Assembly: GCA_963721805.1 (NCBI GenBank)
Contig: CAVRJY010000001.1
Location: 1,120,001-1,184,000 of the forward strand
Origin: Nitrospirota bacterium
GTDB lineage: Bacteria > Nitrospirota > Thermodesulfovibrionia > Thermodesulfovibrionales > JdFR-86
Reading direction: 5' to 3'
DNA: 64,000 bases
The notes under the pieces were generated by a model. The model had not been told where the DNA came from, searched no databases, and saw only the letters and a program-made list of their open reading frames with translations. A program made the translations under genes and the position numbers. Numbering within the stretch: position 1 is the first letter of the stretch; each line of letters begins with the position of its first letter. Shown here piece by piece: positions 1-64,000 of this stretch.

Positions 1-292
1 GAAGCGGCTGCTCGTCGGTGGCGGTTGTTTGCGCTGAGACTTTTCTGCCGAAGCTCGTCCGCAAATGGAGCAGATACCTGAGAATAGTGCTACTCTCCTT
101 CAAGTCTCGCTCCGATCTTTGCAATGGAAGTCTCGCGCTGAAAAAAGATGGCGGTTAAAATAGGTTTTTCCGGTTTAACTGACTATAAGTATACAGCATT
201 ACCAGCCATCAGCATACTGAATGCATACCTTGCAAAGGTCTCGCGCTGTAGTGCCTGCTATACAAAAATATACGGTTTGGCCCAAAATCAAT

Positions 293-376
293 AAAAAAGG
301 GGCTACGATTTCTCGTAACCCCTTGATTTAAAAAGTGGAGCTGAACGGATCGAACCGTCGACCTCTTGAATGCCAT
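293..376. repeat. Displaced att copy: 3' half of tRNA-Ala (from the anticodon loop) plus downstream terminator; direct repeat of 11742-11826
   Basis: AAAAAAGGGGCTACGATTTCTCGTAACCCCTTGATTTAAAAAGTGGAGCTGAACGG-ATCGAACCGTCGACCTCTTGAATGCCAT matches 11742-11826 except for one missing G. Confidence 0.95.
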
Positions 377-389
377 GCATGGCAAGGGC

Positions 390-480
390 TTGCACCGTGT
401 TATACGGTGTTAGCCCTTGTTCTGTTTTAAAAGGGTTTTTTGACACGGTCTTGTACGATGTTACACGGTGTTGTACGGTG
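390..480. repeat. Six 10-bp repeat units (consensus TTRYACGGTG) just inside the left att
   Basis: 390-409 TTGCACCGTG TTATACGGTG; 441-480 TGACACGGTC TTGTACGATG TTACACGGTG TTGTACGGTG. Confidence 0.8.
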
Positions 481-531
481 TCTGGTATACAAAAAGTGTA
501 CAGTCTATAGCTCGATGAAAACTGTATGCCG

Positions 532-587
532 ATGAAAATGTCCGTGATACAATTTTATTGTTATGGTATTTTTCGACTCATTCCGCC
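532..587 (+). repeat. 56-bp imperfect direct repeat, copy A (extended -10 plus start of a short ORF)
   Basis: 46/56 identical to 1259-1314; contains TG-A-TACAAT at 545-553. Confidence 0.85.
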
Positions 588-667
588 GGGTCCGTGTCTC
601 CGAGCCTCTGAAGACCGGGATTTGCAGATACGAGTTTGAGAAAGGTCCAATGGGGTATCTGCTATGA
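563..667 (+). CDS. Putative 34-aa leader peptide MVFFDSFRRVRVSEPLKTGICRYEFEKGPMGYLL
   Basis: ATG 9 nt after TACAAT; its TGA overlaps the ATG at 664 (ATGA). Confidence 0.35.
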   Translation: MVFFDSFRRVRVSEPLKTGICRYEFEKGPMGYLL

Positions 668-1218
668 AAGCACAGCCGGGCGCACAGGACACCGTTATAT
701 TTACAATCGGCCACTCTACAAGACCCGTTTCTGAGTTTATAGAAATTATTAAGGCCTATGGAATCAAGAAGGTAGTAGACGTCCGGACTATCCCGAAATC
801 ACGGCATAACCCCCAGTTCAACAAGGACGAGCTCAAAGAAAGTTTAAAGGTGGTCAAGATCGGATATCTCCATATGAAGGGCCTCGGAGGACTTCGCCAT
901 GCGCTGAAGGACTCACCGAACATGGGATGGAAAAACGCATCTTTCAGGGGGTTCGCTGATTACATGCAGACAGAAGAATTTAAAGAGGCCCTCGATAATC
1001 TTATGTCGGAGGTGCAGAAACGGGCAACGGTTATCATGTGTGCCGAAGCGTTACCGTGGCGCTGTCACCGATCGTTGATAGGAGATGCATTACTAACTCG
1101 GGGAATCCATGTGATAGATATCATGAGCATTACGAGCAGCAGAGACCATACTCTTACGCCATGGGCGAAGGTACATGGGAGCAAAATAACCTATCCCCCG
1201 GAGCCCGATCAATTATAA
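664..1218 (+). CDS. DUF488-family protein
   Basis: IFTIGHS, VVDVRTIPKSRHNPQFN, LGGLR and MCAEALPWRCHRSLI motifs. Confidence 0.85.
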   Translation: MKAQPGAQDTVIFTIGHSTRPVSEFIEIIKAYGIKKVVDVRTIPKSRHNPQFNKDELKESLKVVKIGYLHMKGLGGLRHALKDSPNMGWKNASFRGFADYMQTEEFKEALDNLMSEVQKRATVIMCAEALPWRCHRSLIGDALLTRGIHVIDIMSITSSRDHTLTPWAKVHGSKITYPPEPDQL

Positions 1219-1258
1219 AACTGTACGTGTCAACTGAATCCGAATCATAAATAGTCCA

Positions 1259-1314
1259 ATGAAAATATCCGTGATACAATTAATGTATTATGGGAATTTA
1301 TGACTCATTCCGCC
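1259..1314 (+). repeat. 56-bp imperfect direct repeat, copy B
   Basis: ATGAAAATATCCGTGATACAATT...GACTCATTCCGCC; TG-A-TACAAT at 1272-1280. Confidence 0.85.
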
Positions 1315-1358
1315 TCTTTCGCGTAGCCGCCATCACAAGGGAAAGCCATCAATTATGA
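1290..1358 (+). CDS. Putative 22-aa leader peptide MGIYDSFRLFRVAAITRESHQL
   Basis: ATG 9 nt after TACAAT; TGA at 1356-1358 overlaps ATG 1355 and ATG 1358. Confidence 0.35.
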   Translation: MGIYDSFRLFRVAAITRESHQL

Positions 1359-2071
1359 TGTCTCTGGTGCCCAAGAGAAGGCGCGGCCCCGAGCTGATTG
1401 ATCTCCCCGAGAGCTACAGCCAGCCAGAGTATGCCGGGAGCCTTACGGACATCAGGACTGTCAACCGCTACCTCGGCGACTATCGTGCTACACTCAAATT
1501 CTTTTCAGCCCTTGTATCGGGCATCGCGGCGGACAGGCCCGTCAAGGTGCTGGATATCGCGACCGGGTCTGCGGACATCCCCGTAGCTATGGCGAGATGG
1601 GCTCGCGGGCGGGGGATAAGAGTCGTCATTACCGCCGTGGACATCAACCCGCTGGCTATACGCGAGGCCGCCGCTGTTACCGAAGCATACCCGGAGATAA
1701 CCGTATCTGTCGCCGATGGCTTCTCGCTTCCGTTTGAGGACGGGAGTTTCGACATAGTTCTGTGCGCCAAGACCCTGCACCACTTCAGCGAGGATGATAC
1801 GGTCCGAATCCTGAAGGCAATGTACAGGCTGGCCTCAGTCGGCTATATCGTCATGGATCTAAGGCGCAACTGGGTGCCATGGCTGCTCATAACCATGCTA
1901 TCGCATATCTTCTCACATAACAGGCTTACCCGGCACGATGGCCCGATGTCGGTGCTGCGTTCATACACGGTCGCCGAGTTAGGCACCCTTGCCGACAGTG
2001 CGGGCCTTGCGGGCCATGTGATCGTGAGGCAGCCTTTCTGGCTGATGGTACTCTCCGGAAGGAAGTCCTGA
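1355..2071 (+). CDS. Class I SAM-dependent methyltransferase of the type often adjacent to type III PKS genes
   Basis: VLDIATGSAD motif I, DGFSLPFEDGSFDIV, LHHF, TRHDGPMSV. Confidence 0.85.
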   Translation: MMSLVPKRRRGPELIDLPESYSQPEYAGSLTDIRTVNRYLGDYRATLKFFSALVSGIAADRPVKVLDIATGSADIPVAMARWARGRGIRVVITAVDINPLAIREAAAVTEAYPEITVSVADGFSLPFEDGSFDIVLCAKTLHHFSEDDTVRILKAMYRLASVGYIVMDLRRNWVPWLLITMLSHIFSHNRLTRHDGPMSVLRSYTVAELGTLADSAGLAGHVIVRQPFWLMVLSGRKS

Positions 2072-3295
2072 ATGAGCACATACGGCTTGTCGGTAGCGAC
2101 CAATTTCGACGATGGACTGCTGGACGCCATATCGGGATATCCGGTAACGGAGGTCTTCGGCAAGCTCCCCTCCGACGCTGTCGGCGGTGGCCGGGCCTCC
2201 TTCACGCTCCAGCCGCTGTCGCGCAGGCGGTTTGAGCGCCACGTCGAAAAGGCCAGATCGCTGGGCATCGGATTTAACTACCTCCTTAACCCGGCGTGCA
2301 TGGACAATCGCGAATATACCAGACAAGGACAGCGTGAGATCGAGGCGCTGCTTGGGTATATCGAAAGCGTGGGGGTGAGCGCGGTGACGATATCGCTCCC
2401 GTTGTTGCTGCCGATCATAAAGAAGCGCCATGCCGGGCTTAAGGTGCGTGTAGGCGTATACGCAAGGGTTGACGGTGTGGCCAAGGCCAGGTTCTGGGAG
2501 GATGGCGGTGCGGACTGCATAGCGCTTGAATCGCTGAGCGTCAACCGCGACTTCGAGATGCTGACGGCTATCAGGAAGGCGCTTAAGACAGAGCTGCAGC
2601 TTATCGTCAACGCCAACTGCCAGCTCTTCTGTCCGCTCTCGGGCCAGCACATGGTAAACCTCTCGCACGCATCGCAGAAGGGCCACCCATCGCGAGGGTT
2701 CATGCTGGACTGGTGCGTTATGAAATGCTCATACGACAAACTAAAAGACCCGGCGCAATATCTGAGATCCGAGTTCATCAGACCGGAAGACATGGGCATG
2801 TACCTCGATTTGGGTTACGACTCATTCAAGATATTGGAGCGGGGCGCCCCCACGCCTGTCCTGCTCAAACGGGTAAAGGCTTACTCCGAAGGCCACTACA
2901 ACGGCAACCTGCTGGACCTCATACAGCCCTTCGGGTATAAGGAGAAGAGCGGAGCGTCGCTGGCAGGTGGCCTGTTTAATAAGTGGAGGTATATGTTCAG
3001 ACCGCGCATGGTCAGACTGACGAAGCTCTTGAAATTGAAGGAGCTTGCCGCCAGGCGCGGGATGCTGGAGCCGCTCGCGGGTGAGCCCGTATATATCGAT
3101 AACGGCGAACTGTCCGGATTCATACCCGGCTTCAGGGACCGGGATTGCCGGTCGACCGACTGCGCCGCATGCGGCTGGTGCGCCGCTTATGCCAGAAAAG
3201 CCGTGCGGGTCGATGATGCTTATCGTGTGGAACTCCTCGGGCTTTATGACGAGGTCTTTGCTGATATGTATTCGGGTGATATGTGGGGAATTTAG
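2072..3295 (+). CDS. Peptidase U32-family Fe-S protein (putative O2-independent hydroxylase)
   Basis: FNYLLNPAC, NANCQLFCP, WCVMKC, FIRPED and SFKILER motifs; C-terminal CRSTDCAACGWC. Confidence 0.75.
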   Translation: MSTYGLSVATNFDDGLLDAISGYPVTEVFGKLPSDAVGGGRASFTLQPLSRRRFERHVEKARSLGIGFNYLLNPACMDNREYTRQGQREIEALLGYIESVGVSAVTISLPLLLPIIKKRHAGLKVRVGVYARVDGVAKARFWEDGGADCIALESLSVNRDFEMLTAIRKALKTELQLIVNANCQLFCPLSGQHMVNLSHASQKGHPSRGFMLDWCVMKCSYDKLKDPAQYLRSEFIRPEDMGMYLDLGYDSFKILERGAPTPVLLKRVKAYSEGHYNGNLLDLIQPFGYKEKSGASLAGGLFNKWRYMFRPRMVRLTKLLKLKELAARRGMLEPLAGEPVYIDNGELSGFIPGFRDRDCRSTDCAACGWCAAYARKAVRVDDAYRVELLGLYDEVFADMYSGDMWGI

Positions 3296-3317
3296 GCATC
3301 GTGCCGGAAGGAGTATT

Positions 3318-3575
3318 TTGAGCACCTTGGATCGCATCAGAAAACTGTTTCTCAAGAATTTTGATTTCCCCGAGGAGCGGCTCCGGCCGGAGGCCACGGT
3401 CGAGAGTCTGGGCCTCGATTCTCTGGATAAGATCGAGTTCATGTTCGATCTCGAAAAGGAATTTAACGTGAAGGTCCCTGATCGCGAAGTTACCCTCAAC
3501 TCCATTGAGGATATTATCAATGTCGTCGACAGGCTGCTTGACGCGCAGCGCCAAAGCGGCGGGACGCCTGTATGA
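3318..3575 (+). CDS. Acyl carrier protein
   Basis: LGLDSLD phosphopantetheine site; TTG start at 3318 after AAGGAG. Confidence 0.9.
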   Translation: MSTLDRIRKLFLKNFDFPEERLRPEATVESLGLDSLDKIEFMFDLEKEFNVKVPDREVTLNSIEDIINVVDRLLDAQRQSGGTPV

Positions 3576-4816
3576 GACGTGTAGCCATTACCGGCATGGG
3601 CATCATATCCCCGGTGGGGAATACCTGCGAGGATTTCTTCAATAACCTGATCGCCGCTAAATCGGGGATCAGAAGATTAGTTCCTGATTTCGACGCCCGG
3701 TTGTCTATACGGATCGCCGCTCAGGCGGATTTCTCGGCCGAAAAGCATTTCACGACTAAACAAGCACGGACGCTGGACAGGGTGAGCCAGTTTGCACTGG
3801 TCGCCGCATCGCAGGCATGCAAGGACGCCGGGCTGGAGCTTACAGATGCGGAACAAAGGCGCAGCGGTGTATATCTGGGCACGGGCATGGGAGGTGCGCG
3901 GACGCTCGAGGCCTCCTATGAACAGCTCTATAGTCAGCATGTGAAACGTCTGCATCCGCTTACCGTGGTCATGGTGATGAATAATGCTGCCGCCTCCTCG
4001 ATCTCGATCGAGCACAGCTTGCAGGGCCCCTGCCTTACATTTTCCACCGCCTGCTCATCTTCAGCCGTAGCAATAGGCGAGGCCTTCCGCCTGATCAAGC
4101 ACGGATATGCCGATGTTATGCTCGCCGGGGGGACGGAATCGCTCCTCACCAGCGGGGTGATGATGAGCTGGGAATCAATCGGGACACTAGCCCTGGAATC
4201 GGAAGACCCTTCGGCCTCCTGCCGGCCCTTTTCAAAGGACAGGACCGGATTCGTCCTTGGCGAGGGGGCGGCTGTCGTGGTATTGGAAACCATGGAGCGG
4301 GCACAAAGGCGTGGCGCTCTCATATACGGCGAGATAGCAGGCTACGGCTCAACTGCGGACGCGGAGCATATCACGAAACCCTCTGTGCAAGGACAGGCGC
4401 TTGCTATGGAGGCGGCTCTGAAAGAGGCCGGGATGGACGCGGAGCATATCGACTATATCAATGCCCACGGTACGGCCACCTTGGCCAATGATCTGGCGGA
4501 AACGCAGGCCATCAAGAGCGTGTTCAGTAAGCGGGCCTATGACATCCCCATAAGTTCCACCAAGTCCATGCACGGGCACCTGCTCGGAGCGGCCGGGGCC
4601 GTGGAGCTTGTCGCCTCCGTCCTGGCGCTCAAACATCAGATGATCCCGCCAACCTCGACCCTGATGGTGCCCGACCCTGAGTGTGATCTCGACTATGTGC
4701 CCCTGAAGGCCAGGACAGGCGTGGACCTAAAGGCAGTCATGTCCAATTCCTTCGCCTTCGGCGGGACGAATGCCGTGCTGATCGCGCGTAAACACGTCCA
4801 GAGTTCAGATCAATAG
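3572..4816 (+). CDS. Beta-ketoacyl-ACP synthase (FabF/KASII type)
   Basis: TACSSS, YINAHGTAT, KSMHGHLLGAAG and SNSFAFGGTN; Cys-His-His triad intact. Confidence 0.92.
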   Translation: MRRVAITGMGIISPVGNTCEDFFNNLIAAKSGIRRLVPDFDARLSIRIAAQADFSAEKHFTTKQARTLDRVSQFALVAASQACKDAGLELTDAEQRRSGVYLGTGMGGARTLEASYEQLYSQHVKRLHPLTVVMVMNNAAASSISIEHSLQGPCLTFSTACSSSAVAIGEAFRLIKHGYADVMLAGGTESLLTSGVMMSWESIGTLALESEDPSASCRPFSKDRTGFVLGEGAAVVVLETMERAQRRGALIYGEIAGYGSTADAEHITKPSVQGQALAMEAALKEAGMDAEHIDYINAHGTATLANDLAETQAIKSVFSKRAYDIPISSTKSMHGHLLGAAGAVELVASVLALKHQMIPPTSTLMVPDPECDLDYVPLKARTGVDLKAVMSNSFAFGGTNAVLIARKHVQSSDQ

Positions 4817-6267
4817 TGAAGACCGATGCGGCTGTCAGCGGCATGAATATTCTCATCATTAATACAAACCGCGATGCCTATCCAGTGCCGGTGCTGCCGT
4901 CAGGCGCATGTATGATCGCGGAGGCCGCAGAGAGGGCGGGACACGCGGTTTCGCTTGTTGACCTCATGTTCACGGATGACCCTGATCGTACCCTCAAGAC
5001 GGCGCTCGAAAGTACAATATTCGATGTCATCGGCCTGTCCGTACGGAACATCGACAATATCGACATGCGTGCTCCCCGGTATTTTATCAGCGAGCTCATC
5101 CCACTCATCGACACTATACGCCGGTCCTCGGACGCACACATCGTCCTTGGCGGCGCCGCGCTGATGGTTATGCCCGAGGAGATCATGCGGGCAACTGGAG
5201 TTCCGTGTGCGGTGGTTGGAGACGGTGAATCCGTATTCCCCCGGCTGATAGAGAGGATGGCACGGAATGAACCGTGGGCGGAACTGCCGGGCGTTGCATC
5301 ACTAGTTGGCGGCAGATACCGCGCGAATGCCACGGTACCCGGTCTTTCTCATAGCTGCTCGGGACCTGATTATGGCCGGTGGCTCGATATGAAGGCCTAC
5401 TGTTCGCATATGGCTACGATCCCTCTACAGACGAAGCTCGGATGCCGCTTTCAGTGTGTCTATTGCACCTACCGCAAGATCGAAGGCCACGGCTACAGGC
5501 TGTCGGAGCCTTCGAGCGTGGCCGAGGCCGTGCGCCGTTATGCGTCATCCGGATTTAAAGACATAGAGTTCGTCGACAACGTGTTTAACTCTCCATACGA
5601 CCATGCCATCGAGGTATGCGAGGCGATAATAAGTTCAAAAAAACACCGCGCTCGCCTTCAAAGCATCGAGCTTAGCCCGGTCTCATTCGACCAGCGCCTG
5701 CTCTGCACCATGGAGCGCGCGGGCTTTGTGGGGATCGGCCTTACTGTGGAGAGTGCATCAGGCGCGGTCTTGCATGGGCTTAATAAAGGTTTCACTGCGC
5801 GCGAGGTCCATGCGGCGGCGGAGGTGGTGAGGCGCAACCGGCTGCCGTGCCTCTGGATTTTTATGATGGGCGGCCCGGGGGAGACCCGCGATACCGTGCG
5901 CGAAACCCTGAGTTTCGCCGAGAAGTTCATCCGGCCTCAGGATGCCGCTTTCTTCAATATAGGCGTCCGAATCTATCCGAGGACTGAACTGGAGTCCATC
6001 GCACGCAGCCAAGGCGTACTTGCTCCTCTTGCCGATTTGCTGGAGCCAGCGTTTTATGTCTCGCCCGAGGTAGAGGCGGACTGGATCGCGGGGCAGGTGA
6101 AGCTTTCAATGAACAGCCATATGAACTTCATGGACGGGGATTCGATGTCGTTTTCCTATCTTCCGCAGATCAGCCGTCTTGGACATCGGATGGGGCTCAA
6201 GCCGCCACTCTGGCGGTATACCCGCCTTATCCGAAGGGGTTTGCGCTCGGTCGGGATGCGCGTATGA
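4816..6267 (+). CDS. Cobalamin-binding radical SAM protein (start may be ATG 4843)
   Basis: N-terminal B12-binding-like domain (VIGLSVRNIDN, IVLGG, VVGDGE); CRFQCVYC motif; GGPGET. Confidence 0.88.
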   Translation: MKTDAAVSGMNILIINTNRDAYPVPVLPSGACMIAEAAERAGHAVSLVDLMFTDDPDRTLKTALESTIFDVIGLSVRNIDNIDMRAPRYFISELIPLIDTIRRSSDAHIVLGGAALMVMPEEIMRATGVPCAVVGDGESVFPRLIERMARNEPWAELPGVASLVGGRYRANATVPGLSHSCSGPDYGRWLDMKAYCSHMATIPLQTKLGCRFQCVYCTYRKIEGHGYRLSEPSSVAEAVRRYASSGFKDIEFVDNVFNSPYDHAIEVCEAIISSKKHRARLQSIELSPVSFDQRLLCTMERAGFVGIGLTVESASGAVLHGLNKGFTAREVHAAAEVVRRNRLPCLWIFMMGGPGETRDTVRETLSFAEKFIRPQDAAFFNIGVRIYPRTELESIARSQGVLAPLADLLEPAFYVSPEVEADWIAGQVKLSMNSHMNFMDGDSMSFSYLPQISRLGHRMGLKPPLWRYTRLIRRGLRSVGMRV

Positions 6268-6295
6268 GGACGAGACATATGGAAAGGAATCTTGC

Positions 6296-7363
6296 ATGAT
6301 GGATGAACAGGCTGCCGCGCCGCATATAGCATCGGTAGCGGTGGCAACGCCTCCCTGCACCGTCGAGCAGGCGGAACTAGAACGCCTTGCGTACAAGCAT
6401 TACAAAGACAGGCTAAGCCCGCGAAGCATCTCGCTCATACACGCGCTCTTTGCCCATCCAAGCATTAAAACGCGGAGCTTCGCCATAGGAAACGTCGAGG
6501 ACCTCGTGGACGAGGACCCTGACCGGCGCGTTGCGCGTTTTACTCACTGGTCGCAGGAACTCTCGGCGAAGGCGATCTCTAAAGCCCTGGCGCAAGCGGG
6601 CTTGGGAACAAGCGATGTGGCCGGACTTGTCGTGAATACGTGTACGGGATATATCTGCCCCGGAATCTCGACATATCTGATCGAGAGGCTCGGCCTCGCG
6701 CGCGACGTACGCGTGTACGATCTGGTCGGGAGCGGATGCGGTGGGGCGATCCCAAACCTCGAGGTCTCGGAGTCGCTCATGAGGCAGACGGCAGACGGGG
6801 TGGTGGTGAGCGTCTCGGTCGAGATCTGCACCGCAACCTTTCAGATGCAGGATGACATCAGCCTCCTTCTCTCAAACACGCTCTTCGGAGACGGCGCGGC
6901 GGCCGCCGTTTTGTGGGGCAGGCCACAGGGATACGAGCTTGTCGCCTCGGCCAGACGGTATGTGCCGGAGCAGCGCGAAGCGGTCCGCTACATCCACAAA
7001 AACGGCCAGCTCCACAACCAGCTCTCGCTCAGATTGCCGGAGCTGGTCGGGAAGACGGCCTCACAGGTCGTCTTGGATCTTTTGGCCCCCTATGGGCTTA
7101 AACCACAGGATATAAAACACTGGGCCCTGCACAGCGGCGGCGAAAAGATCATTAACGCCGTCCAGTCGGGACTTGGGCTGTCGGAGGATCAGGTCCGTGC
7201 GACGCGCTGCGTGCTTTCGGAATACGGGAACATGTCCTCGCCCACGGTCTGGTTCGTGCTCAACGAGATCGAGAAGCGGGGCGTTGCCCCGGGAGAGTGG
7301 TGCATCATGGTCGTCTTTGGCGCGGGTCTATCTGCGCATGCATACCTGCTGCGAAAGAAATAG
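6296..7363 (+). CDS. Type III polyketide synthase (chalcone-synthase superfamily)
   Basis: Catalytic Cys (GSGCGG), His (HSGG) and Asn (YGNMSS); LFGDGAAA; AAAGGA SD before ATG 6296/6299. Confidence 0.92.
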   Translation: MMDEQAAAPHIASVAVATPPCTVEQAELERLAYKHYKDRLSPRSISLIHALFAHPSIKTRSFAIGNVEDLVDEDPDRRVARFTHWSQELSAKAISKALAQAGLGTSDVAGLVVNTCTGYICPGISTYLIERLGLARDVRVYDLVGSGCGGAIPNLEVSESLMRQTADGVVVSVSVEICTATFQMQDDISLLLSNTLFGDGAAAAVLWGRPQGYELVASARRYVPEQREAVRYIHKNGQLHNQLSLRLPELVGKTASQVVLDLLAPYGLKPQDIKHWALHSGGEKIINAVQSGLGLSEDQVRATRCVLSEYGNMSSPTVWFVLNEIEKRGVAPGEWCIMVVFGAGLSAHAYLLRKK

Positions 7364-7373
7364 TACGGACAAT

Positions 7374-7826
7374 ATGAGAGCAAGCATTGTAATACTCTGG
7401 CTGTGCGTATTTATATCCTCTGCCGCCTATGCGGCCCAGGGTGACGAAATTTTAGGTGTGTGGAATAACGAGGGAAAAGACGCCAAGATAGAGATATTCA
7501 AATGCGGCGGAAAATACTGCGGGAAGATAATTGCTCTGAGAGAACCGAACTATACACCGGATTTCAACTACGGTGTGATCGGCACGCCAAAACTTGATCA
7601 CAACAACCCCGACACCGCTAAAAGGTCCGTGCCAATTATGGGCCTCCAGATCGTGAATAAATTCACCTTCGCAGGCGGAAACGTTTGGAAGGACGGGACT
7701 GTGTACGATCCCAAAAACGGCAAGACATATAGCGGCAGGCTTACGCTCGTTTCACCGATTCGGCTTGACTTAAGGGGTTTTGTCGTTATCCCGCTCTTCG
7801 GCAGAACCACTACGTGGACACGGTAG
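7374..7826 (+). CDS. DUF2147-like secreted protein
   Basis: Signal peptide; GVW, YCGKI, DHNNPD, WKDGTVYDPKNGKTY, LRG and FGRTTTWTR motifs. Confidence 0.8.
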   Translation: MRASIVILWLCVFISSAAYAAQGDEILGVWNNEGKDAKIEIFKCGGKYCGKIIALREPNYTPDFNYGVIGTPKLDHNNPDTAKRSVPIMGLQIVNKFTFAGGNVWKDGTVYDPKNGKTYSGRLTLVSPIRLDLRGFVVIPLFGRTTTWTR

Positions 7827-7844
7827 GTTCGGGGCTGGCAGAAA

Positions 7845-7873
7845 TTGACATCACCCATTTGCAGGAGTAGGAT
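7845..7873 (+). promoter_or_regulatory. Sigma70-type promoter of the gluconate dehydrogenase operon
   Basis: TTGACA-N17-TAGGAT, 6 nt before ATG 7880. Confidence 0.6.
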
Positions 7874-7879
7874 TCGTTT

Positions 7880-8581
7880 ATGAACGGATCAGAAAAATCG
7901 CCCAGCCGCCGCGATTTCCTCCGCAAGATGATCATCCTGGCCCCGACCATCACTATAGCCGCATGCGCACCCATGTCGGCTCTGAAGACATTCCCTGAGC
8001 AAGCCTATTCGCCCAGGTATTTTTCACCTGAAGAGTTGACCTTCCTTAACGCTGCCTGTGAGCGCCTGATTCCCACTGACGAAAACGGTCCCGGTGCATC
8101 GGAGCTCGGCGTGCCGGATTTCATCGACCGTGAAATGGATGGATCCTTTGGGCATGCGGCTAACTGGTACATGCAGGGCCCATTCGCCTCTGGAGCGCCC
8201 GAACTAGGCTACCAGTCGCCCCTGACGCCGCGCGAGGTCTACCGCGCCGGCATCGCCGCGGTGAACGCGCACTGCCGGAACGTATACGGCAACAAGCCTT
8301 TTTCAGAACTTCCTGCCGCAACGCAGGACTCGGTGCTGACCGGGCTGGAAAGTGGCACACTGAAATTCGAGAATGTATCAGCTACTGCCTTCTTCGGCTT
8401 TTTGCTTCAGAACACCAAGGAGGGCTATCTGGCCGATCCTATCCATGGCGGCAATAAAAACATGGAGAGCTGGAAGATGATCGGCTTTCCCGGCGCGCGC
8501 GCGGATTTCATCGACTGGGTGGATAAGCATGGCGTGCGCTATCCGTACGGCCCGGTCAGCATTTCGGGCATGAAGGGCTGA
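7880..8581 (+). CDS. Gluconate 2-dehydrogenase subunit 3 (gamma), Tat-exported
   Basis: SRRDFLR twin-arginine motif; ERLIP, GVPDFID and EGYLADPIHGGNKNMESWKMIGFPGA. Confidence 0.9.
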   Translation: MNGSEKSPSRRDFLRKMIILAPTITIAACAPMSALKTFPEQAYSPRYFSPEELTFLNAACERLIPTDENGPGASELGVPDFIDREMDGSFGHAANWYMQGPFASGAPELGYQSPLTPREVYRAGIAAVNAHCRNVYGNKPFSELPAATQDSVLTGLESGTLKFENVSATAFFGFLLQNTKEGYLADPIHGGNKNMESWKMIGFPGARADFIDWVDKHGVRYPYGPVSISGMKG

Positions 8582-8586
8582 TCGCG

Positions 8587-10359
8587 ATGGCCGATATAAA
8601 TAAATCAGCTGTCGACGCGGTGCTTGTCGGGTTCGGCTGGACCGGCGCCATAATGGGCATGGAACTCACCGAGGCCGGTCTGAATGTAGTCGCGCTCGAA
8701 CGCGGAGAGAACCGTGATACCTATCCTAATTTCGCCTATCCGCTCAGTGCCGACGAGCTGACATACGGCATACGCGGCAGGCTGTTTCAGAACCTGTCGC
8801 GCGAGACGCTGACGATTCGCCATTCCCCCGGGGACCGCGCCCTGCCTTATCGTCAGCTGGGGTCGTTTCTGCCGGGCACCGGTGTAGGTGGCGGCGGGGT
8901 GCACTGGAACGGCCAGCACTGGCGCGTGCTGCCTGAGGAATTGCGGCTCAAGAGCCACGTTACGGAGCGCTATGGCAAGGGTTTTATACCCGACGGCATG
9001 ACGATCCAGGATTTCGGCGTCAGCTATGATGAACTCGAGCCCTGCTTCGACCAGTTCGAACGCGTATGCGGCACCTCGGGTAAGGCCGGAAACCTGGGCG
9101 GTACGATAGTCGAGGGTGGCAATCCGTTCGAGGGACGACGTTCCAGGGAATATCCGCTGCCACCGCTTGCCGACGTCTACGGCGCCACATTATTTGCCAA
9201 GGCGGCTAAGGAGCTCGGCTACCATCCTTTTTCGGAACCGGCAGCGAATGCCTCACGGCCATACACTAACACCTATGGCGCCCAGCTTGGGCCGTGCAAC
9301 TTATGCGGCTATTGCGAACGCTTCGGCTGTTATAAGTATGCCAAGGCCTCTCCGCAAACGACCATCCTGCCGGTGCTGATGAAGAAACCTAATTTCGAAT
9401 TGCGCGCCCAGTCGCACGTGGTGCGCATCAACCTCGACTCCTCGGGCAAGCGCGCCACCGGGGTCACCTACATCGACGCCCAGGGCCGCGAGGTGTTCCA
9501 GCCTGCGGAGCTCGTCGTCCTTAGCGCCTATCAGCTAAATAACACCAGGCTGCTGCTGCTCTCCGGGATCGGCAAGCCATACGATCATGCGACAGGCACC
9601 GGGGTCGTCGGGCGCAACTATGCCTATCAGATGATCGGCGGCGTCATGGTGTTCTTCGACAAGGACAAGCCTATGAATCCCTTCATCGGTTCGGGCGCGG
9701 GCGGACAGATTATAGACGACCTCAACGGCGACCATTTCGACCACGCCCCGCATGGGTTCATCGGCGGAGGTTATATCGGGGTAATTCAGACCGGCGGCCG
9801 GCCTATCCAGCAGATGCTGCTTCCCAAAGCCACGCCGCAGTGGGGCGCTAAATGGAAGCAGGCGATCAAGGACCATTATCTGTACTCCGTCAACATACTT
9901 ACCCACGGCACTGTCATGTCACACCGCGACAATTACCTCGACCTCGATCCCACGTATCGCGACGTATTCGGCCAGCCGCTTCTGCGCATGACCTTCGACT
10001 GGAAGGAAAACGAGATCAAGATGACCCAGTTCATAACCGGCAAGGCAAAGGAAATCGCCGAGGCGATGGACGGCAAATCGGTAGAGGCAAAGATGAAACA
10101 GACCGGCGATCACTACGACACGCGGGTATACCAGACCACGCACAATGTCGGCGGCGCGGCCATGGGCGAGGACCCGCAGCGAAGCGTGGTCAACCGCTTT
10201 TTGCAGTCCTGGGACGCGCACAATGTGTTCGTAATGGGCTCGAGCGTCTATCCGCAAAATATCGGTTACAACCCGTTGGGCCTGGCGGGCGCACTGGCGT
10301 TCTGGTCCGCAAAGGCCATTCGCACGGCCTACCTGAAATCGCCCGGGCCACTGGTATAG
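8587..10359 (+). CDS. Gluconate 2-dehydrogenase flavoprotein subunit (GMC oxidoreductase)
   Basis: VLVGFGWTG FAD site; GVGGGGVHWNG; CNLCGYCERFGC; YQTTHNVGG. Confidence 0.9.
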   Translation: MADINKSAVDAVLVGFGWTGAIMGMELTEAGLNVVALERGENRDTYPNFAYPLSADELTYGIRGRLFQNLSRETLTIRHSPGDRALPYRQLGSFLPGTGVGGGGVHWNGQHWRVLPEELRLKSHVTERYGKGFIPDGMTIQDFGVSYDELEPCFDQFERVCGTSGKAGNLGGTIVEGGNPFEGRRSREYPLPPLADVYGATLFAKAAKELGYHPFSEPAANASRPYTNTYGAQLGPCNLCGYCERFGCYKYAKASPQTTILPVLMKKPNFELRAQSHVVRINLDSSGKRATGVTYIDAQGREVFQPAELVVLSAYQLNNTRLLLLSGIGKPYDHATGTGVVGRNYAYQMIGGVMVFFDKDKPMNPFIGSGAGGQIIDDLNGDHFDHAPHGFIGGGYIGVIQTGGRPIQQMLLPKATPQWGAKWKQAIKDHYLYSVNILTHGTVMSHRDNYLDLDPTYRDVFGQPLLRMTFDWKENEIKMTQFITGKAKEIAEAMDGKSVEAKMKQTGDHYDTRVYQTTHNVGGAAMGEDPQRSVVNRFLQSWDAHNVFVMGSSVYPQNIGYNPLGLAGALAFWSAKAIRTAYLKSPGPLV

Positions 10360-10363
10360 GATT

Positions 10364-11662
10364 GTGCGCGTTGCGTTAAATATAAAGGTCATAGCGGCCA
10401 TTGTCGTGATGATTGCAACTAGCGCGATGGCGCAAGCCGCACCAGATGAGCTCGTGCAGCGCGGCGCCTATCTCGCGCATGCCGGAGACTGCATTGCCTG
10501 CCATACCGCCCCGGACGGAAAGCCATACTCCGGCGGGGTGCCGATAAACACGCCGATCGGGATGATTTATTCGACCAACATCACTCCGGACCTCGAAACC
10601 GGGATCGGTAAATACAGCATGGACGAATTCGTGAGGGCCATGCGCGAAGGCGTGGCGAACGACGGGCAACATCTTTATCCGGCCATGCCCTATACGTCCT
10701 TCACGAGGCTGTCGAAGGAAGACCTGACGGCGCTCTATGCCTACTTCATGCATGGCGTCGAGCCGGTGCACAAGCAAAATCACGAGACGAAATTGAGCTG
10801 GCCGCTCAGCATGCGATCTCTCATGGCGCTCTGGAATGATCTATATCTCAAGAAGGGCGAATACGCCGCCGATCCGAATAAGAGCGCGTCATGGAACCGC
10901 GGCGCATATCTCGTGCAGGGTCTCGGACATTGCGGCGGATGCCACACGCCGCGGGGAGTTGGCGGCCAGGAGTTGGCGGACAGCGAAAAGGGCGGCAGTA
11001 AATTCCTCGCCGGGGCCACGCTGGACGACTGGCATGCATCATCCCTGAATGGGGACCTAGATACCGGGCTGCATGCCTGGTCGAAAGAGGAGCTGGCCGA
11101 ATTCTTAAAAACCGCCCGCACCGCACGCGTCGCGGCATTTGGCATGATGGCGGGAGTGGTCGGAATGAGCACCCAATATCTGACTGATAATGACCTTATG
11201 GGGATTGCCGAATACCTGAAATCAATGCCGCCTTCAGAGGACAATGCCGCGGATTCGGCCGTGCAAGCCAATGCCGTCAGTGCTGCGACGATAGCGCTGC
11301 GCGCTGGTGATATCTCGATGCGTGGATCGCGCGTCTATCTGGACAATTGCGGCGCCTGCCATGGCTCGGACGGCGCGGGCGCAACGCGGACCTTCCCGCA
11401 CCTGACGAAAAACGAAGAGGTCAACTCCAAAGATCCAACCTCAATGATTCACATAGTGCTGGGTGGGTCAGCAATGCCGTCAACGCAAACCGCGCCCTCA
11501 GCGCTCGCCATGCCCGACTTCGGCTGGCGACTGAGCGATGCGGAAGTGGCTGATGCGCTAAGCTTTATACGCGGCAACTGGGGCAATCATTCGGCAGCGG
11601 TCAGCAGCGATGAGATCGGCCGCTTGCGCAAATCCCTCGCTCTTCAAAATACAGTTCAGTAA
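10364..11662 (+). CDS. Gluconate 2-dehydrogenase triheme cytochrome c subunit
   Basis: Signal peptide; CIACH, CGGCH and CGACH; STNITPD, LYPAMPY and MPDFG. Confidence 0.9.
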   Translation: MRVALNIKVIAAIVVMIATSAMAQAAPDELVQRGAYLAHAGDCIACHTAPDGKPYSGGVPINTPIGMIYSTNITPDLETGIGKYSMDEFVRAMREGVANDGQHLYPAMPYTSFTRLSKEDLTALYAYFMHGVEPVHKQNHETKLSWPLSMRSLMALWNDLYLKKGEYAADPNKSASWNRGAYLVQGLGHCGGCHTPRGVGGQELADSEKGGSKFLAGATLDDWHASSLNGDLDTGLHAWSKEELAEFLKTARTARVAAFGMMAGVVGMSTQYLTDNDLMGIAEYLKSMPPSEDNAADSAVQANAVSAATIALRAGDISMRGSRVYLDNCGACHGSDGAGATRTFPHLTKNEEVNSKDPTSMIHIVLGGSAMPSTQTAPSALAMPDFGWRLSDAEVADALSFIRGNWGNHSAAVSSDEIGRLRKSLALQNTVQ

Positions 11663-11740
11663 CCTTGAAACGCTGGCAGTATCCGCTTGATATAGCTATC
11701 CCAAGTAAACAATAAGTATACAATTTGCCCCAAAAGCATA

Positions 11741-11773
11741 AAAAAAAGGGGCTACGATTTCTCGTAACCCCTT
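11741..11773 (-). terminator. Rho-independent terminator downstream of tRNA-Ala
   Basis: Minus strand AAGGGGTTACGA-GAAA-TCGTAGCCCCTT followed by a T run. Confidence 0.75.
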
Positions 11774-11784
11774 GATTTAAAAAG

Positions 11785-11857
<73 letters not shown>

Positions 11858-11866
11858 GAGACCGTA

Positions 11867-11920
11867 ATTATATCCGTTAGCGGCCACCCGTTGTCAAGGC
11901 GGACAGGTATCCTGTACAAT
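11867..11920. promoter_or_regulatory. Back-to-back promoters for tRNA-Ala (-) and the 11948 gene (+) with overlapping -35 boxes
   Basis: Minus strand TTGACA(11897-11892)-N19-TATAAT; plus strand TTGTCA(11891)-N18-TACAAT. Confidence 0.45.
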
Positions 11921-11947
11921 CCGCACCGGTTTGAATTACACTTATGC

Positions 11948-12364
11948 ATGGGATTTATTATAAGGCTCCTGATGCTTACGATACTGGCGGGGATCATATT
12001 CATAGGCGTCGCGCTGTTCCGGGGTGGCTCGGATATCAGGCACGCCGGCGACGTGATCGCGCGCACCTTTGATTCGGCCGCTGACAAGGCCGACCGGATC
12101 AGGCATATCGTTACCAAGACCGACAGCACGATCGAGCGCGTCGGCGACACCATCAATGACGCGGCCCATGGGGCCGCCGAACGGCTCAAGGACACTAAAG
12201 ACAAGATCGACGGCAAGGCCTCCGAACTAAAGTGCCGCGCGGACGATAAGGCCGATGAACTCCGCCGCATCAAAGACTGCGTCAACAACTCGATCTCAAA
12301 TTCGGTGGATTCATTCAATAAAGGGAAAGACCGTCATGCAACAGCCACCGGCGATAAGCGTTAG
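11948..12364 (+). CDS. Membrane-anchored helical hypothetical protein
   Basis: N-terminal TM segment (MGFIIRLLMLTILAGIIFIGVALF) followed by a charged amphipathic helical region. Confidence 0.55.
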   Translation: MGFIIRLLMLTILAGIIFIGVALFRGGSDIRHAGDVIARTFDSAADKADRIRHIVTKTDSTIERVGDTINDAAHGAAERLKDTKDKIDGKASELKCRADDKADELRRIKDCVNNSISNSVDSFNKGKDRHATATGDKR

Positions 12365-13019
12365 CGGCCTCAGGAAGTCCTACAAGACCCAGGCCGGGCA
12401 ACTCGACGTCCTAAAGGGCATAGACCTCGATATCGCCGCCTCGTCGATGTCAGCGATAATGGGGGCCTCAGGGGTGGGCAAGAGCACGCTGCTCCAGATG
12501 CTCGGCACGCTCGACACCCCAAGCGAAGGCAGCATCTCATACTACGGGAGCGATATATCCGGCCTCGGCGAGGCCGAGCTATCGGCATTCAGGAACCGGA
12601 CTATCGGGTTCATATTCCAGTTCCACCACCTGCTGCCGGAGTTCAACGCGCTCGAAAACGTGATGATGCCTGTGCTGATCAATGGCTCGGTCGGCAGGGA
12701 CGAGGCCGAGCGCATGGCAAGGGGGCTACTGGACGAGGTCGGGCTCGGCGAGCGTCTCACGCACCGCCCGGGGGAGCTCTCGGGCGGAGAGCAGCAGCGC
12801 GTGGCCGTGGCGCGGGCGCTCGTGATGTCGCCGCGCGTGGTGCTCGCCGACGAGCCCACGGGCAACCTCGATACGCGCACCGGGATGGAGGTCTTCGACC
12901 TGCTTGAGCGCCTGAACCGGGCGCGCGGGATAACCTTCGTGATCGTCACGCATAACGAGGCGCTCTCTGAGCGCTGTCACCGCGTGATAGAGATGGTCGA
13001 CGGAAGGATTAAGTCCTAG
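12336..13019 (+). CDS. lolD: Lipoprotein-releasing ABC transporter ATPase (LolD-like)
   Basis: [38 protein letters not shown] and ADEPTGNLD. Confidence 0.75.
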
Positions 13020-13070
13020 CAAAAGCCGCTCTATTGCATCCCATCGCGCAGCGAGCGCGGAGCGTTGCCC

Positions 13071-13769
13071 CTAGCAAATGGACGCGGGGATGTCCCTGGA
13101 CAGCACGCCCTTGCTCATCCAGAGCATGCGGTCGGCCTGTTTCGCGAGTTCCATGTTGTGGGTTACGAGTATGAAGGTTATGTTGCGCTCCTTGCACTTT
13201 CCGCGCAGGAACTTCATCACTTCGCCTTCGGTCTCCTCGTCGAGGTCCCCCGTCGGCTCGTCCGCAAGAATGATCTCGGGGTTGTTGATCAGCGCGCGGC
13301 CGATGGCCACGCGGCGCTGCTGGCCGCCGCTGAGCTGTGAGGGCAGCGAGTCCATCTTGTCCTTAAGCCCCAGAGAGGTGAGGCATTCCTCGGCGAGTTT
13401 CATGTCCTCGGAGGTGGGTTTCTGCTTGCACCTAAACAGCGAGGGCAGGATGACGTTTTCGCGCGCGGTAAGCACTTGCAGGAGGCTCGCGAACTGGAAT
13501 ATGTACCCCACGCTGTCGGCGCGATAGCCGGAGAGCCCGTCGTCGTTCTGCGCGTATACGTCCATGCCGTTAAACACGATGCTGCCCGAGGTGGGCCGGA
13601 GTATCCCGCCCATGATCGAAAGCAGGGTCGTCTTGCCGGAGCCGGAGTGCCCGACTATCGAGAGGAACTCGCCCTTCTCGACCGTGAGCGATGCGTTATC
13701 GACGGCCCTGAACTCCGAGCCCTCTATCGTGTAAAGCTTGCTTACGTTATTGACTTCGATCTGGGCCAT
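13071..13769 (-). CDS. ABC transporter ATPase (LolD/MacB family)
   Basis: GHSGSGKTT, LSGGQQRRV and ADEPTGDLD. Confidence 0.9.
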   Translation of the reverse strand: MAQIEVNNVSKLYTIEGSEFRAVDNASLTVEKGEFLSIVGHSGSGKTTLLSIMGGILRPTSGSIVFNGMDVYAQNDDGLSGYRADSVGYIFQFASLLQVLTARENVILPSLFRCKQKPTSEDMKLAEECLTSLGLKDKMDSLPSQLSGGQQRRVAIGRALINNPEIILADEPTGDLDEETEGEVMKFLRGKCKERNITFILVTHNMELAKQADRMLWMSKGVLSRDIPASIC

Positions 13770-13777
13770 GCTGTCTC

Positions 13778-14965
13778 CTATTGCTCCTTGAGCACGTCGA
13801 GCGGCTCGAGCCGCTTGATATGGTTTACGCTGGAGAGCGATCCCACCACGCTGATGCCGACTCCGACCGCGAGGCCCAGAAGCGCGATCAGCAGCCTGTC
13901 GCCGAGCGTGAGGGACACGTTCATGTCCCTGATGAGCGTAAACATTTGCGTGAGGCCAAGCGACATGAGCGTGCCGGCTATTATGCCGACTACGCTGCCC
14001 ATCGAGCCGAGCGTCACAACCTCGATCAGGAAGGCGCGGGCCACGTCCTTGCCCCTCGCGCCTATCGCGCGCAGTATGCCGATTTCGCGCGCGCGCTCGT
14101 TGACAATGGCCGAGAATATCGTCCAGGTCAGGAATACGGCGATGAGCGCGGCTATGGATATCGTGAGCAGAAAGATGCGGTTGATGTCCTTGAGCGTACC
14201 TATAATGCCCTTGCCGATGTCGTCGCGGTAGATGTAATTGACGTCGTTGAGGTCGCCCGCGATCTGGCGTCCGACCTTGTAAGGGTCGTAGCCGCTCTTG
14301 AGCTTGACGAATATCATCGATATCTGCCCTGCCTTAAGCGGCGTCTTGGCGAGCTTCACGATATCGGGGAGGTTCTCGTCGCTTATGAAAATGGCGTTGT
14401 CCAGTCCGGTGCCGGTCTTTATGAGCCGGCCTATAAAATTGAACTTCTTATTGAAGAGCACGCTGCTCGATACGCGAATGAGATCGAGGTTCTGGTTGGC
14501 CTGATACCCGATGATGGCCTCACCCTTGACCATCTTGCGGTCGACGATGCCGGAGAGCCACGGCTTTACGATGAAGTCGGTGTCCTGGTCGATCGCGACG
14601 ACCTTCACGGGCGGGATGTCGCAGCATACGCCGAGGATCGATTCGAGGAACGTCTGGGAGGTGACGGCTGCAACGCCTTCGACCTGCTTGATCTTGTCGA
14701 CGTAGTCGCGGGGCATGTAGAAGTTCGGGCCCTTGCCCTCGAGCAATACCGTCTCGGCCGAGTCCGAGGCGCCCATCGGGACTATCGCGAGGTCGGCCCC
14801 GAACCTTGCGGTTGCGCGGGCCACGCCCAGCGAGACGCTCTCGATGAAAGAAGTGCCGAAGACGAGGATAGCCACGAGGAGCCCGATCGAGAGGACGAGC
14901 ACAGCCGTGCGGAACGGCTTCAGCATCAGGTTGCGCATCGCGAGGCTCATGAGCCCGAAAGTCAT
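13778..14965 (-). CDS. FtsX/MacB-family ABC permease
   Basis: TM1, periplasmic domain (with CC motif), ERAREIGILRAIGA and three C-terminal TMs. Confidence 0.88.
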   Translation of the reverse strand: MTFGLMSLAMRNLMLKPFRTAVLVLSIGLLVAILVFGTSFIESVSLGVARATARFGADLAIVPMGASDSAETVLLEGKGPNFYMPRDYVDKIKQVEGVAAVTSQTFLESILGVCCDIPPVKVVAIDQDTDFIVKPWLSGIVDRKMVKGEAIIGYQANQNLDLIRVSSSVLFNKKFNFIGRLIKTGTGLDNAIFISDENLPDIVKLAKTPLKAGQISMIFVKLKSGYDPYKVGRQIAGDLNDVNYIYRDDIGKGIIGTLKDINRIFLLTISIAALIAVFLTWTIFSAIVNERAREIGILRAIGARGKDVARAFLIEVVTLGSMGSVVGIIAGTLMSLGLTQMFTLIRDMNVSLTLGDRLLIALLGLAVGVGISVVGSLSSVNHIKRLEPLDVLKEQ

Positions 14966-14990
14966 ATCTGGTGTTGCCGCCTTTCTTGAT

Positions 14991-15041
14991 AAAAAAAGAA
15001 TCGGGACGCCTCTATATTATACACAGCAGAGGCGTCCCGAT
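14991..15041 (-). terminator. Rho-independent terminator after the 15074-16201 gene
   Basis: 14-bp stem ATCGGGACGCCTCT/AGAGGCGTCCCGAT followed on the minus strand by TCTTTTTTT. Confidence 0.8.
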
Positions 15042-15073
15042 CCATCAAGCCGCGTCAGGCGGCCGTTGCGTTC

Positions 15074-24866: not shown

Positions 24867-24961
24867 TCTATAAATATGCGCCGTAGTTTTTTGCCATTAA
24901 TTTGACATGGCGCAGTAATGATATTGTATGGCGGCAATTATCATCAAGGCTGGAGGGACGG

Positions 24962-31690: not shown

Positions 31691-31700
31691 GGCGGGTAAT

Positions 31701-33005: not shown

Positions 33006-33011
33006 ATTACG

Positions 33012-36210: not shown

Positions 36211-36224
36211 CGGAGGGATTGGGT

Positions 36225-37813: not shown

Positions 37814-37869
37814 AAGTTTCATGCGCCCTGAGATCGCGGATCATAACTGGATAGGAGGGCATTTTTTAT

Positions 37870-38739: not shown

Positions 38740-38814
38740 TGAGTGTGCAGCGCTGTTGCATAACAGGGATCGTTTTGTTATATTTATGAGATTCTCTCGG
38801 AGGAGGGCTGTGAA

Positions 38815-39585: not shown

Positions 39586-39598
39586 AGGGCTGAGCGCG

Positions 39599-59844: not shown

Positions 59845-59847
59845 AGT

Positions 59848-61263: not shown

Positions 61264-61264
61264 G

Positions 61265-63684: not shown

Positions 63685-63691
63685 CGCGCCT

Positions 63692-63943: not shown

Positions 63944-63955
63944 AGAAGCCGGTGC

Positions 63956-64000
63956 TCAGCCCTTGCCGCTGGTGTTGTCGTAGATGAAGTTGGCAAGCGT
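63956..64000 (-). CDS. C-terminus of an upstream gene, possibly a second ACP (partial)
   Basis: ...TLANFIYDNTSGKG-stop resembles an ACP terminal helix. Confidence 0.35.
   Translation of the reverse strand, partial: TLANFIYDNTSGKG

Follow-up and report, generated by a model that had tools for sequence, protein, structure and literature searches.

A type III polyketide synthase operon with a U32-like protein and a cobalamin-binding radical SAM enzyme in Nitrospirota: a candidate pathway to phenolic lipids without oxygen

This study concerns an operon at positions 1355-7363 of a 64,000-nucleotide (nt) stretch of a Nitrospirota genome (GenBank assembly GCA_963721805.1, contig CAVRJY010000001.1, positions 1,120,001 to 1,184,000), which is referred to as the window. 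The operon encodes a methyltransferase (MT), a divergent U32-like protein, an acyl carrier protein (ACP), a ketosynthase (KS), a cobalamin (B12)-binding radical S-adenosylmethionine (SAM) enzyme (rSAM) and a type III polyketide synthase (PKS). We propose that it makes a tailored phenolic lipid without molecular oxygen and is built of three modules, a proposal that we regard as evenly poised between right and wrong. The modular architecture is observed directly. Compared across genomes, the operon does not behave as a single block but falls into three modules that can be separated: an invariant core of rSAM-PKS, a tailoring pair of MT-U32 whose members come and go together, and an optional ACP-KS module. 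By analogy with known systems, we rate the operon as a phenolic-lipid operon of the Srs/Hid/Pkq type that would have been rebuilt with oxygen-independent enzymes; we infer every chemical step and the identity of the product.

Type III PKSs with a methyltransferase and a flavin enzyme are encoded by srsABC of Streptomyces griseus and by pkqABC of Mycobacterium smegmatis and Streptomyces sp. MNU77. According to the consulted sections of PMC9927152, these enzymes turn an alkylresorcinol into a methylated benzoquinone, and the resulting alkylquinones, or 'polyketide quinones', act under low oxygen. The order methyltransferase, flavin adenine dinucleotide (FAD) oxidoreductase, PKS is described in the consulted part of PMC10896814 for hidABC of picocyanobacteria (hierridins) and for 58 of 96 planctomycete PKS genes (mtr-fdo-t3pks); the PKSs of both are given there as proven alkylresorcinol synthases. 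U32 proteins have been tied to O2-independent hydroxylation with prephenate as oxygen donor (sections of PMC10990095 and PMC6747719). The same sections of PMC10990095 state that no other known hydroxylases draw their oxygen from an organic donor, and that the function of most U32 subfamilies is not known.

The operon and the frame that follows it comprise the following genes, with lengths in amino acids (aa):

1355-2071, plus strand: MT, a class I SAM methyltransferase, UbiE/MenG-like, 238 aa (Methyltransf_25, Ubie_methyltran)
2072-3295, plus strand: U32-like protein, a divergent U32-family protein with predicted TIM-barrel fold, 407 aa (borderline PF01136, match to 5d88, fold)
3318-3575, plus strand: dedicated ACP, 85 aa, TTG start (PP-binding, 4.9e-11)
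3572-4816, plus strand: KS, a FabF-type beta-ketoacyl-ACP synthase II, 414 aa (TIGR03150)
4816-6267, plus strand: rSAM, a cobalamin-binding (class B) radical SAM protein by its sequence, 483 aa (B12-binding, Radical_SAM)
6296-7363, plus strand: type III PKS, 355 aa (Chal_sti_synt_C, FAE1_CUT1_RppA)
7374-7826, plus strand: DUF2147 protein, secreted, with signal peptide, 150 aa (PF09917, 1.6e-33)

The first six genes are co-directional and follow one another almost without intergenic DNA. Their successive junctions measure 0, 22, -4, -1 and 28 nt, so that the MT stop abuts the start of the U32-like gene and the end of the ACP gene overlaps the KS start by 4 nt. An earlier sequence-only reading of this DNA had reported six tightly packed genes, an intact Cys-His-Asn triad in the PKS, the lack of a flavin monooxygenase and a combination that it knew from no characterised cluster. 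The six genes are indeed there, and a seventh was overlooked: the DUF2147 frame begins 10 nt past the PKS stop and is probably a further member of the operon. A DUF2147 gene also directly follows the PKS in four related loci (L001, L002, L006 and L010; 64-71% identity) and the U32-like gene in L012 (53% identity). Its AlphaFold2 (AF2) model is unusable, with a predicted local distance difference test (pLDDT) score of 47.8, and a search for a solved relative found none. Ahead of the MT gene lies an AT-rich spacer of 136 nt (1219-1354); scans of the operon region for promoters and terminators gave no signal exceeding chance.

The other points held as well. No flavin monooxygenase was found in window positions 1-16000, either by Pfam scans or by tblastn with the FAD_binding_3 proteins of two Geobacterales loci described below. 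Among open-access papers and bioRxiv, none was found to report a U32 protein or a B12 radical SAM partner alongside a type III PKS, nor was any published description of the whole combination found. As to the triad, C148, H279 and N312 of the PKS fall on the GC, HPG and GN motifs in an alignment with 2-pyrone synthase (1ee0) and a rice enzyme (3oit), whose residues there we take to be the catalytic Cys-His-Asn triad.

The modular view comes from the distribution of the genes across genomes. A first set of 15 related loci was found in metagenome-assembled genomes (MAGs) labelled Nitrospirota, Acidobacteriota/Holophagales, Rokuibacteriota, Desulfuromonadaceae, Geobacter and Geomonas (loci and genomes carry our own handles, L and G). 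A PKS ortholog adjoins the U32-like gene in ten of the 15; one locus is cut at a contig end, and four have no orthologous PKS beside the U32-like gene. The complete six-gene synteny recurs in L001, L002, L006 and L048. In two of the genomes without an adjoining PKS (G032 and G033) MT-U32 lies on one contig and ACP-KS/rSAM-PKS on another (L028, L029), and for the locus cut at the contig end the PKS was found on a second contig (L030). The blocks are thus kept even where they are unlinked, all parts being retained. Some copies look degraded: L029 has a PKS (8520-10490) and a KS (7262-8466) broken over several frames, L009 retains only a KS remnant (its first 63 residues; 9558-9743), and L010 has no rSAM match and a partial PKS only. 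These copies are either long-read frameshift errors or decaying clusters.

The sequence-only reading had taken the PKS and the U32 protein for parts of one pathway, and their joint conservation stands in two phyla. We sampled 301 Nitrospirota genomes, with a threshold of at least 60% identity for U32-like orthologs. The U32-like ortholog is present in 16 of these genomes, the PKS ortholog in 43 and both in nine. These nine are exactly the clade of U32-like proteins with 79-88% identity that includes the window, and the PKS is found in nine of nine. A second sample comprised 151 genomes of the order Geobacterales, where the U32-like gene occurs in 24 genomes, the PKS in 29 and both in 23 (thus 23 of the 24 carriers of the U32-like gene); in all 23 the two genes lie on the same contig within 2.4 kb. 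The usual Geobacterales layout is a B12 radical SAM gene, one further gene, MT, U32, PKS and, on the opposite strand, a second B12 radical SAM gene. The order MT-U32-PKS was seen in L013-L015 and L053-L057, and ACP-KS is absent from Geobacterales clusters. Several Geobacterales carriers have megabase-scale single contigs, e.g. G369, G354 and G408.

The loci that carry a PKS without a U32-like gene delimit the modules. In all 12 such Nitrospirota loci fetched, a B12 radical SAM gene (48-65% identity) lies directly upstream of the PKS; ACP-KS accompanies it in one and MT in none. An MT ortholog was found nowhere in five PKS genomes without a U32-like gene (0/5, E ≤ 1e-10). Of the six Geobacterales loci with a PKS only, five were fetched, and each of these has rSAM-PKS. 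Taken together, the rSAM gene is directly upstream of the PKS in 17 of 17 U32-free loci (12 Nitrospirota, 5 Geobacterales), and ACP-KS occurs in one of them. Conversely, in 23 of 27 U32-ortholog loci the gene immediately preceding the U32-like one is an MT ortholog. Since rSAM-PKS stays together in all 17 of these U32-free loci, the B12 enzyme belongs with the PKS and not with ACP/KS, and the earlier proposal that ACP, KS and B12 radical SAM form one starter-building unit did not survive.

What stands in the place of the U32-like gene elsewhere is informative for its possible role. Two of the five U32-free Geobacterales loci (L066 and L067) encode a FAD_binding_3 protein (PF01494, ~1e-47), followed by a methyltransferase, directly upstream of rSAM-PKS. 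We take FAD_binding_3 to be the family of class A aromatic hydroxylases. When all fetched loci were searched by tblastn with the two FAD proteins, none of the 17 PKS loci with a U32-like gene had a match and two of the 20 without it did. The idea that U32 and FAD enzymes exclude each other agrees with these numbers as far as they go, with two cases on the FAD side. The methyltransferase type that accompanies the FAD gene is present in L011 and L064 too. In the few cases available, these loci support the view that the U32-like protein is an O2-independent stand-in for a flavin hydroxylase.

The sole Pfam match of the U32-like protein, Peptidase_U32 (PF01136), reaches 20.6 bits against a gathering score of 22.4, and 22.6 once neighbouring in-frame stretches are counted. 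By Pfam alone the assignment made by the sequence-only reading is therefore weak; it is backed by other evidence. The protein matches the solved U32 peptidase Mk0906 (PDB 5d88) by sequence (4.5e-5), PF01136 is recorded for most of its close homologues, and its neighbours in the ESM Atlas are U32 clusters. In Foldseek, an AF2 model built on 21 homologues (pLDDT 76.8) matches 5d88 best (E 5.5e-10), followed by generic TIM barrels at about 1e-5. The protein is thus predicted from its model to have the U32 TIM-barrel fold. Protein 2072-3295 is a member of the U32 family, outside all four characterised subfamilies (UbiU, UbiV, RlhA and TrhP). Its own family is large and strongly conserved, with 668 matches at E ≤ 1e-3 among the candidates scored; in a profile search the cluster representatives numbered 601 at E ≤ 1e-30 and 1950 at E ≤ 1e-3. 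Profile comparison with single Escherichia coli U32 proteins was weak (TrhP 63% probability, RlhA 9.5%, UbiU and UbiV below 2%). The U32-like gene is the only PF01136 match of its genome, so that there is no UbiU/UbiV-like paralogue pair.

Among the residues invariant in an alignment of 21 sequences are C76, C183, C187, H193, H199, C215 and C219, as well as a C-terminal motif C359x4C364x2C367x2C370. The published U32 motif of four cysteines is CX6CX15CX3/4C (PMC6747719, in the section consulted). The U32-like protein departs from it with the pattern C183x3C187x27C215x3C219, in which only C183 and C215 occupy canonical Cys columns. In an alignment with UbiU, UbiV, RlhA and TrhP of E. coli, C183 coincides with the second Cys of the canonical CX6C and C215 with a Cys of the canonical CX3C; the two remaining canonical positions hold no Cys, although C187 and C219 lie four residues off. 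The C-terminal four-Cys motif has no counterpart in the four E. coli proteins. Selenocysteine was considered for this family and rejected: TGA codons within the match in three Geobacterales genomes are natural C-terminal stops.

A clade of paralogues of the U32-like protein (36-44% identity, ~470-490 aa) includes some members with a DUF2621-like tail. One paralogue lies beside two B12 radical SAM genes and two phytoene-desaturase-like genes (L050:90-7922), another beside a KS, an ApbA-type reductase and an aldehyde:ferredoxin oxidoreductase (L049:2853-9737). Possibly these two neighbourhoods represent another lipid pathway that uses the family. In the neighbourhoods of two further paralogues (L031 and L052) no lipid genes were found.

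In the rSAM protein, the B12-binding domain PF02310 (5.2e-13) scores 49.3 bits against 32.1 and the Radical_SAM domain PF04055 (1e-16) 62 bits against 29.5, with the motif C210x3Cx2C intact. With an N-terminal B12-binding domain and a CX3CX2C core, it is assigned by sequence to the class B (cobalamin-binding) radical SAM proteins; its true start may be ATG 4843 instead of 4816. The nearest NCBIfam model, TIGR04072, gives 297.9 bits, under the cut-off of 360, which places the protein outside that family. The runners-up are BzaD and tryptophan 2-C-methyltransferase. These nearest named relatives are presumably ring C-methylases, and the best PDB match is TsrM-type 6wte (5.8e-23). The PKS carries Chal_sti_synt_C (2.3e-21, 76.8 bits) and FAE1_CUT1_RppA (2.2e-17, 63.8 bits), each against a gathering score of 27. 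Its orthologs align only from residue 18-19 onward, and the likely start is ATG 6296, not TTG 6179. The nearest solved PKSs match weakly (best E 1.6e-33, over ~275-325 of 355 residues).

MT matches Methyltransf_25 (8.5e-16) and Ubie_methyltran (9.4e-13) in Pfam, has the SAM motif DIATGS at residue 67 and reaches 137 bits with NCBIfam PRK06202, under the cut-off of 243. A complex prediction of MT and the U32-like protein from two alignments scored 0.00, which is no verdict either way. The ACP has a DSL motif at residue 34, with S35 as its serine, and GGAGG lies 4-5 nt upstream of its TTG start. The KS is barely over the TIGR03150 cut-off (494.5 bits against 493.75), has an intact C161/H299/H336 triad and is one of six KS paralogues matched in the window's genome.

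On this basis a pathway can be proposed. In the core, the type III PKS would condense an acyl starter and malonyl units into a resorcinol- or pyrone-type ring, and the B12 enzyme would make a radical modification, probably the addition of a C-methyl group. C-methylation is proposed because the named relatives of the rSAM protein after TIGR04072 are BzaD and tryptophan 2-C-methyltransferase and its solved relative is 6wte. In the tailoring module, the U32-like Fe-S protein would hydroxylate the ring from an organic oxygen donor, as has been proposed for UbiU/UbiV with prephenate, and the UbiE-like MT would then methylate the product. MT and U32 together would replace the pair of FAD monooxygenase and methyltransferase in Srs/Hid/Pkq operons. 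Where present, ACP and KS would provide a dedicated acyl starter. The product is probably a hydroquinone or quinone methyl ether derived from an alkylresorcinol. The genome has genes of the futalosine pathway (two PF02621 matches), so that any quinone-like product would be auxiliary to menaquinone.

The analogy can be followed system by system. With srsABC and pkqABC the window shares a PKS and a methyltransferase in one operon, a likeness judged by gene content. A methyltransferase gene accompanies the PKS as in operons of the Srs/Hid/Pkq type, while the flavin-dependent hydroxylase or oxidoreductase has no counterpart: the hydroxylase position is taken by a putative U32-like Fe-S protein, without a flavoprotein. 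Unlike srsABC and pkqABC, the window moreover has a B12 radical SAM gene fixed to the PKS, plus ACP/KS and DUF2147. The Geobacterales relatives keep the order of hidABC and mtr-fdo-t3pks as far as the consulted part of PMC10896814 gives it, i.e. MT, middle enzyme, PKS, in the form MT-U32-PKS. Their middle gene is U32-like and not a FAD-dependent oxidoreductase, and in the window ACP-KS-rSAM is inserted between the U32-like gene and the PKS. With UbiU-UbiV(-UbiT), RlhA and TrhP the U32-like protein shares the predicted U32 TIM-barrel fold and cysteines at two Fe-S ligand columns; with UbiU-UbiV it further shares a lipophilic phenolic ring as proposed substrate and an adjoining UbiE-like methyltransferase. 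It differs from UbiU/UbiV as a single gene, not a pair, and groups with neither; the operon has no SCP2/UbiT gene (Pfam scan), and the protein has its own Cys pattern and the extra C-terminal CX4CX2CX2C.

A more specific form of the proposal can be stated. The operon could be an anaerobic counterpart of the actinobacterial polyketide-quinone pathway, in which an alkylresorcinol, C-methylated by the B12 enzyme, then hydroxylated by a new U32 subfamily from an organic donor such as prephenate and finally methylated, would give a membrane alkyl-benzoquinone or quinol. Strict anaerobes such as Geobacterales and anaerobic Nitrospirota would use it as a redox lipid or auxiliary electron carrier. Taken jointly, pathway and role are unlikely, if worth stating.

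Several observations weigh against ring hydroxylation by the U32-like protein in the service of the PKS. In the phylum sample 34 of the 43 PKS genomes lack the U32-like gene, and so do six of the 29 PKS genomes of Geobacterales; moreover, the compared genomes are related, so that all these counts overstate independence and no statistical test is claimed for them. The swap with the flavin enzyme rests on the two FAD cases mentioned. The 18 remaining U32-free PKS loci have no hydroxylase candidate nearby, as judged from the neighbours of the six that were scanned, and the FAD gene has a methyltransferase of another kind at its side (27-28% identity). The U32-like protein itself combines its altered Cys pattern with a deep branch. 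The earlier reading had likened it to UbiU/UbiV, RlhA and TrhP; in a quick maximum-likelihood tree of 37 rows its family (29 rows) is a separate deep clade, close to none of the four. The branch that splits it off has a length of 2.44 and a support of 95 in the Shimodaira-Hasegawa-like approximate likelihood ratio test (SH-aLRT), with RlhA, UbiU, TrhP and four canonical U32 proteins from the window's order on the opposite side and UbiV alone on a long branch. Finally, seven genomes of one Nitrospirota family (f20) have a U32-like ortholog of 61-66% identity, and none of 12 genomes of this family has a type III PKS at E ≤ 1e-30. The four f20 loci fetched (L044-L047) read MT-U32-SRPBCC (Polyketide_cyc)-KS, one of them with a B12 radical SAM gene upstream. 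KS and SRPBCC may stand in for the type III PKS there.

These points feed the main alternative, that MT-U32 would not hydroxylate a ring at all. Instead, the U32-like Fe-S protein would catalyse a different redox reaction, or a radical-free Fe-S reaction, on an acyl-ACP or polyketide chain (for example dehydration, reduction, decarboxylation or desaturation), as part of a general lipid tailoring that would serve a type III PKS or a KS. Besides the f20 loci and the deep position of the family, this alternative draws on H193, H199 and the C-terminal four-Cys motif, which are invariant and specific to the family and occur in none of the E. coli U32 proteins, and on the company of the paralogues in L049 and L050. 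It also gains from the consulted section of PMC10990095, by which no U32 protein has had direct hydroxylase activity demonstrated in vitro. On the other hand, all U32 members of known role are linked to aromatic or heteroaromatic ring hydroxylation in the sections available of PMC10990095 and PMC6747719. In MT-x-PKS operons, moreover, the U32-like gene stands where the FAD oxidoreductase would otherwise be, with FAD monooxygenases only where U32 is absent, and KS with SRPBCC may itself build an aromatic ring. The suggestion that U32 replaces an O2-dependent hydroxylase therefore keeps its support from gene order, where MT-U32-PKS mirrors MT-FAD-PKS, and from the complementary FAD cases, and loses some through MT-U32 pairs that live without a PKS. 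We consider the alternative doubtful, though it has a real chance of being correct, and retain ring hydroxylation as our proposal.

A second alternative starts from the ACP, KS and B12 radical SAM genes. In a 'ladderane-like' pathway the output of these three would be a membrane fatty acid carrying a modification, with a peripheral part for the type III PKS. The title of TIGR04072, the nearest NCBIfam model of rSAM, is 'lipid biosynthesis B12-binding/radical SAM'. Sets of ACP, FabF and B12 radical SAM belong to candidate ladderane clusters (sections of PMC2649909 and PMC13459092), where, as in the window, an ACP, a FabF-type KS and a B12 radical SAM gene adjoin (Kuste2803-type, TIGR04072; PMC2649909, same section), and ladderane-type clusters of unknown function occur in many non-anammox phyla (PMC9902471, in the part consulted). 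Unlike these clusters, the window couples its rSAM gene to a type III PKS, and no PKS was found in K. stuttgartiensis according to the consulted section of PMC2649909. The score of 297.9 bits stays below the cut-off of TIGR04072, whose true member in this genome (606.9 bits) lies in a separate cluster just beyond the window end. Moreover, ACP-KS is missing from 16 of the 17 U32-free rSAM-PKS loci as well as from the Geobacterales clusters, and among the loci examined the rSAM gene is never apart from the PKS. A ladderane-like product is accordingly quite improbable.

The cluster with the TIGR04072 member is of interest in its own right. This second, larger lipid-type cluster begins in the window (58195-64000, minus strand) and runs on to ~1205000 of the contig (L058, L059). 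It encodes an AMP-ligase, a FAD_oxidored protein, a GT2/DUF2062 protein and the TIGR04072 B12 radical SAM protein, and further another radical SAM protein, a SPASM radical SAM protein, three KS paralogues, an ACP, a PlsC-like acyltransferase, a short-chain dehydrogenase/reductase (SDR) and several family-less proteins. It resembles 'ladderane-like' or aryl-polyene-like clusters of non-anammox bacteria.

That the six genes are merely a recent juxtaposition of independent modules with unrelated products deserves very little credence: every module is found alone elsewhere and the cluster looks horizontally acquired, but start and stop codons overlap or abut, the identical six-gene order recurs in four loci, U32-PKS adjacency is found in a second phylum (23/23 in Geobacterales), and both blocks are retained even when unlinked.

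The distribution of the block is most simply explained if all of it was acquired horizontally. The U32-like gene was found in none of ten genomes of the window's own family, and it is a different family of the phylum that holds its nearest copies (79-88% identity) as well as those of the PKS (75-82%). Since the contig around the window measures 1.55 Mb, faulty binning is unlikely. Directly upstream of the operon, a DUF488 gene (664-1218) lies in a stretch of lower G+C content (0.46-0.48 at 664-1354, against 0.55-0.60 in the operon), which may be the edge of the acquired block. Downstream, three gluconate 2-dehydrogenase subunit genes follow (7880-11662), with DUF2147 between the PKS and them. 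The same trio, with 66-86% identity, follows the PKS in the Rokuibacteriota-labelled MAG (L030:4927-8724), which suggests that a larger block moved between phyla. Farther along the window (24902-40678) there is a run of glycan/polysaccharide genes, including a 1636-aa fusion of TPR, GT2 and GT1, a TPR-methyltransferase, nucleotide-sugar enzymes and a sulfotransferase.

If the more specific form of the proposal is true, the U32-like protein would for the first time extend U32 hydroxylation beyond the metabolism of ubiquinone and RNA, and its exchange with FAD enzymes would be a natural enzyme swap tracking oxygen availability. Ring hydroxylation by the U32-like protein would also explain how anaerobes could make hydroxylated phenolic or quinone-like lipids. 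A large U32 subfamily wired into polyketide and lipid clusters offers a concrete, testable case of U32 chemistry in natural-product and lipid biosynthesis, and the widespread, unstudied pair of B12 radical SAM enzyme and type III PKS is given a defined context.

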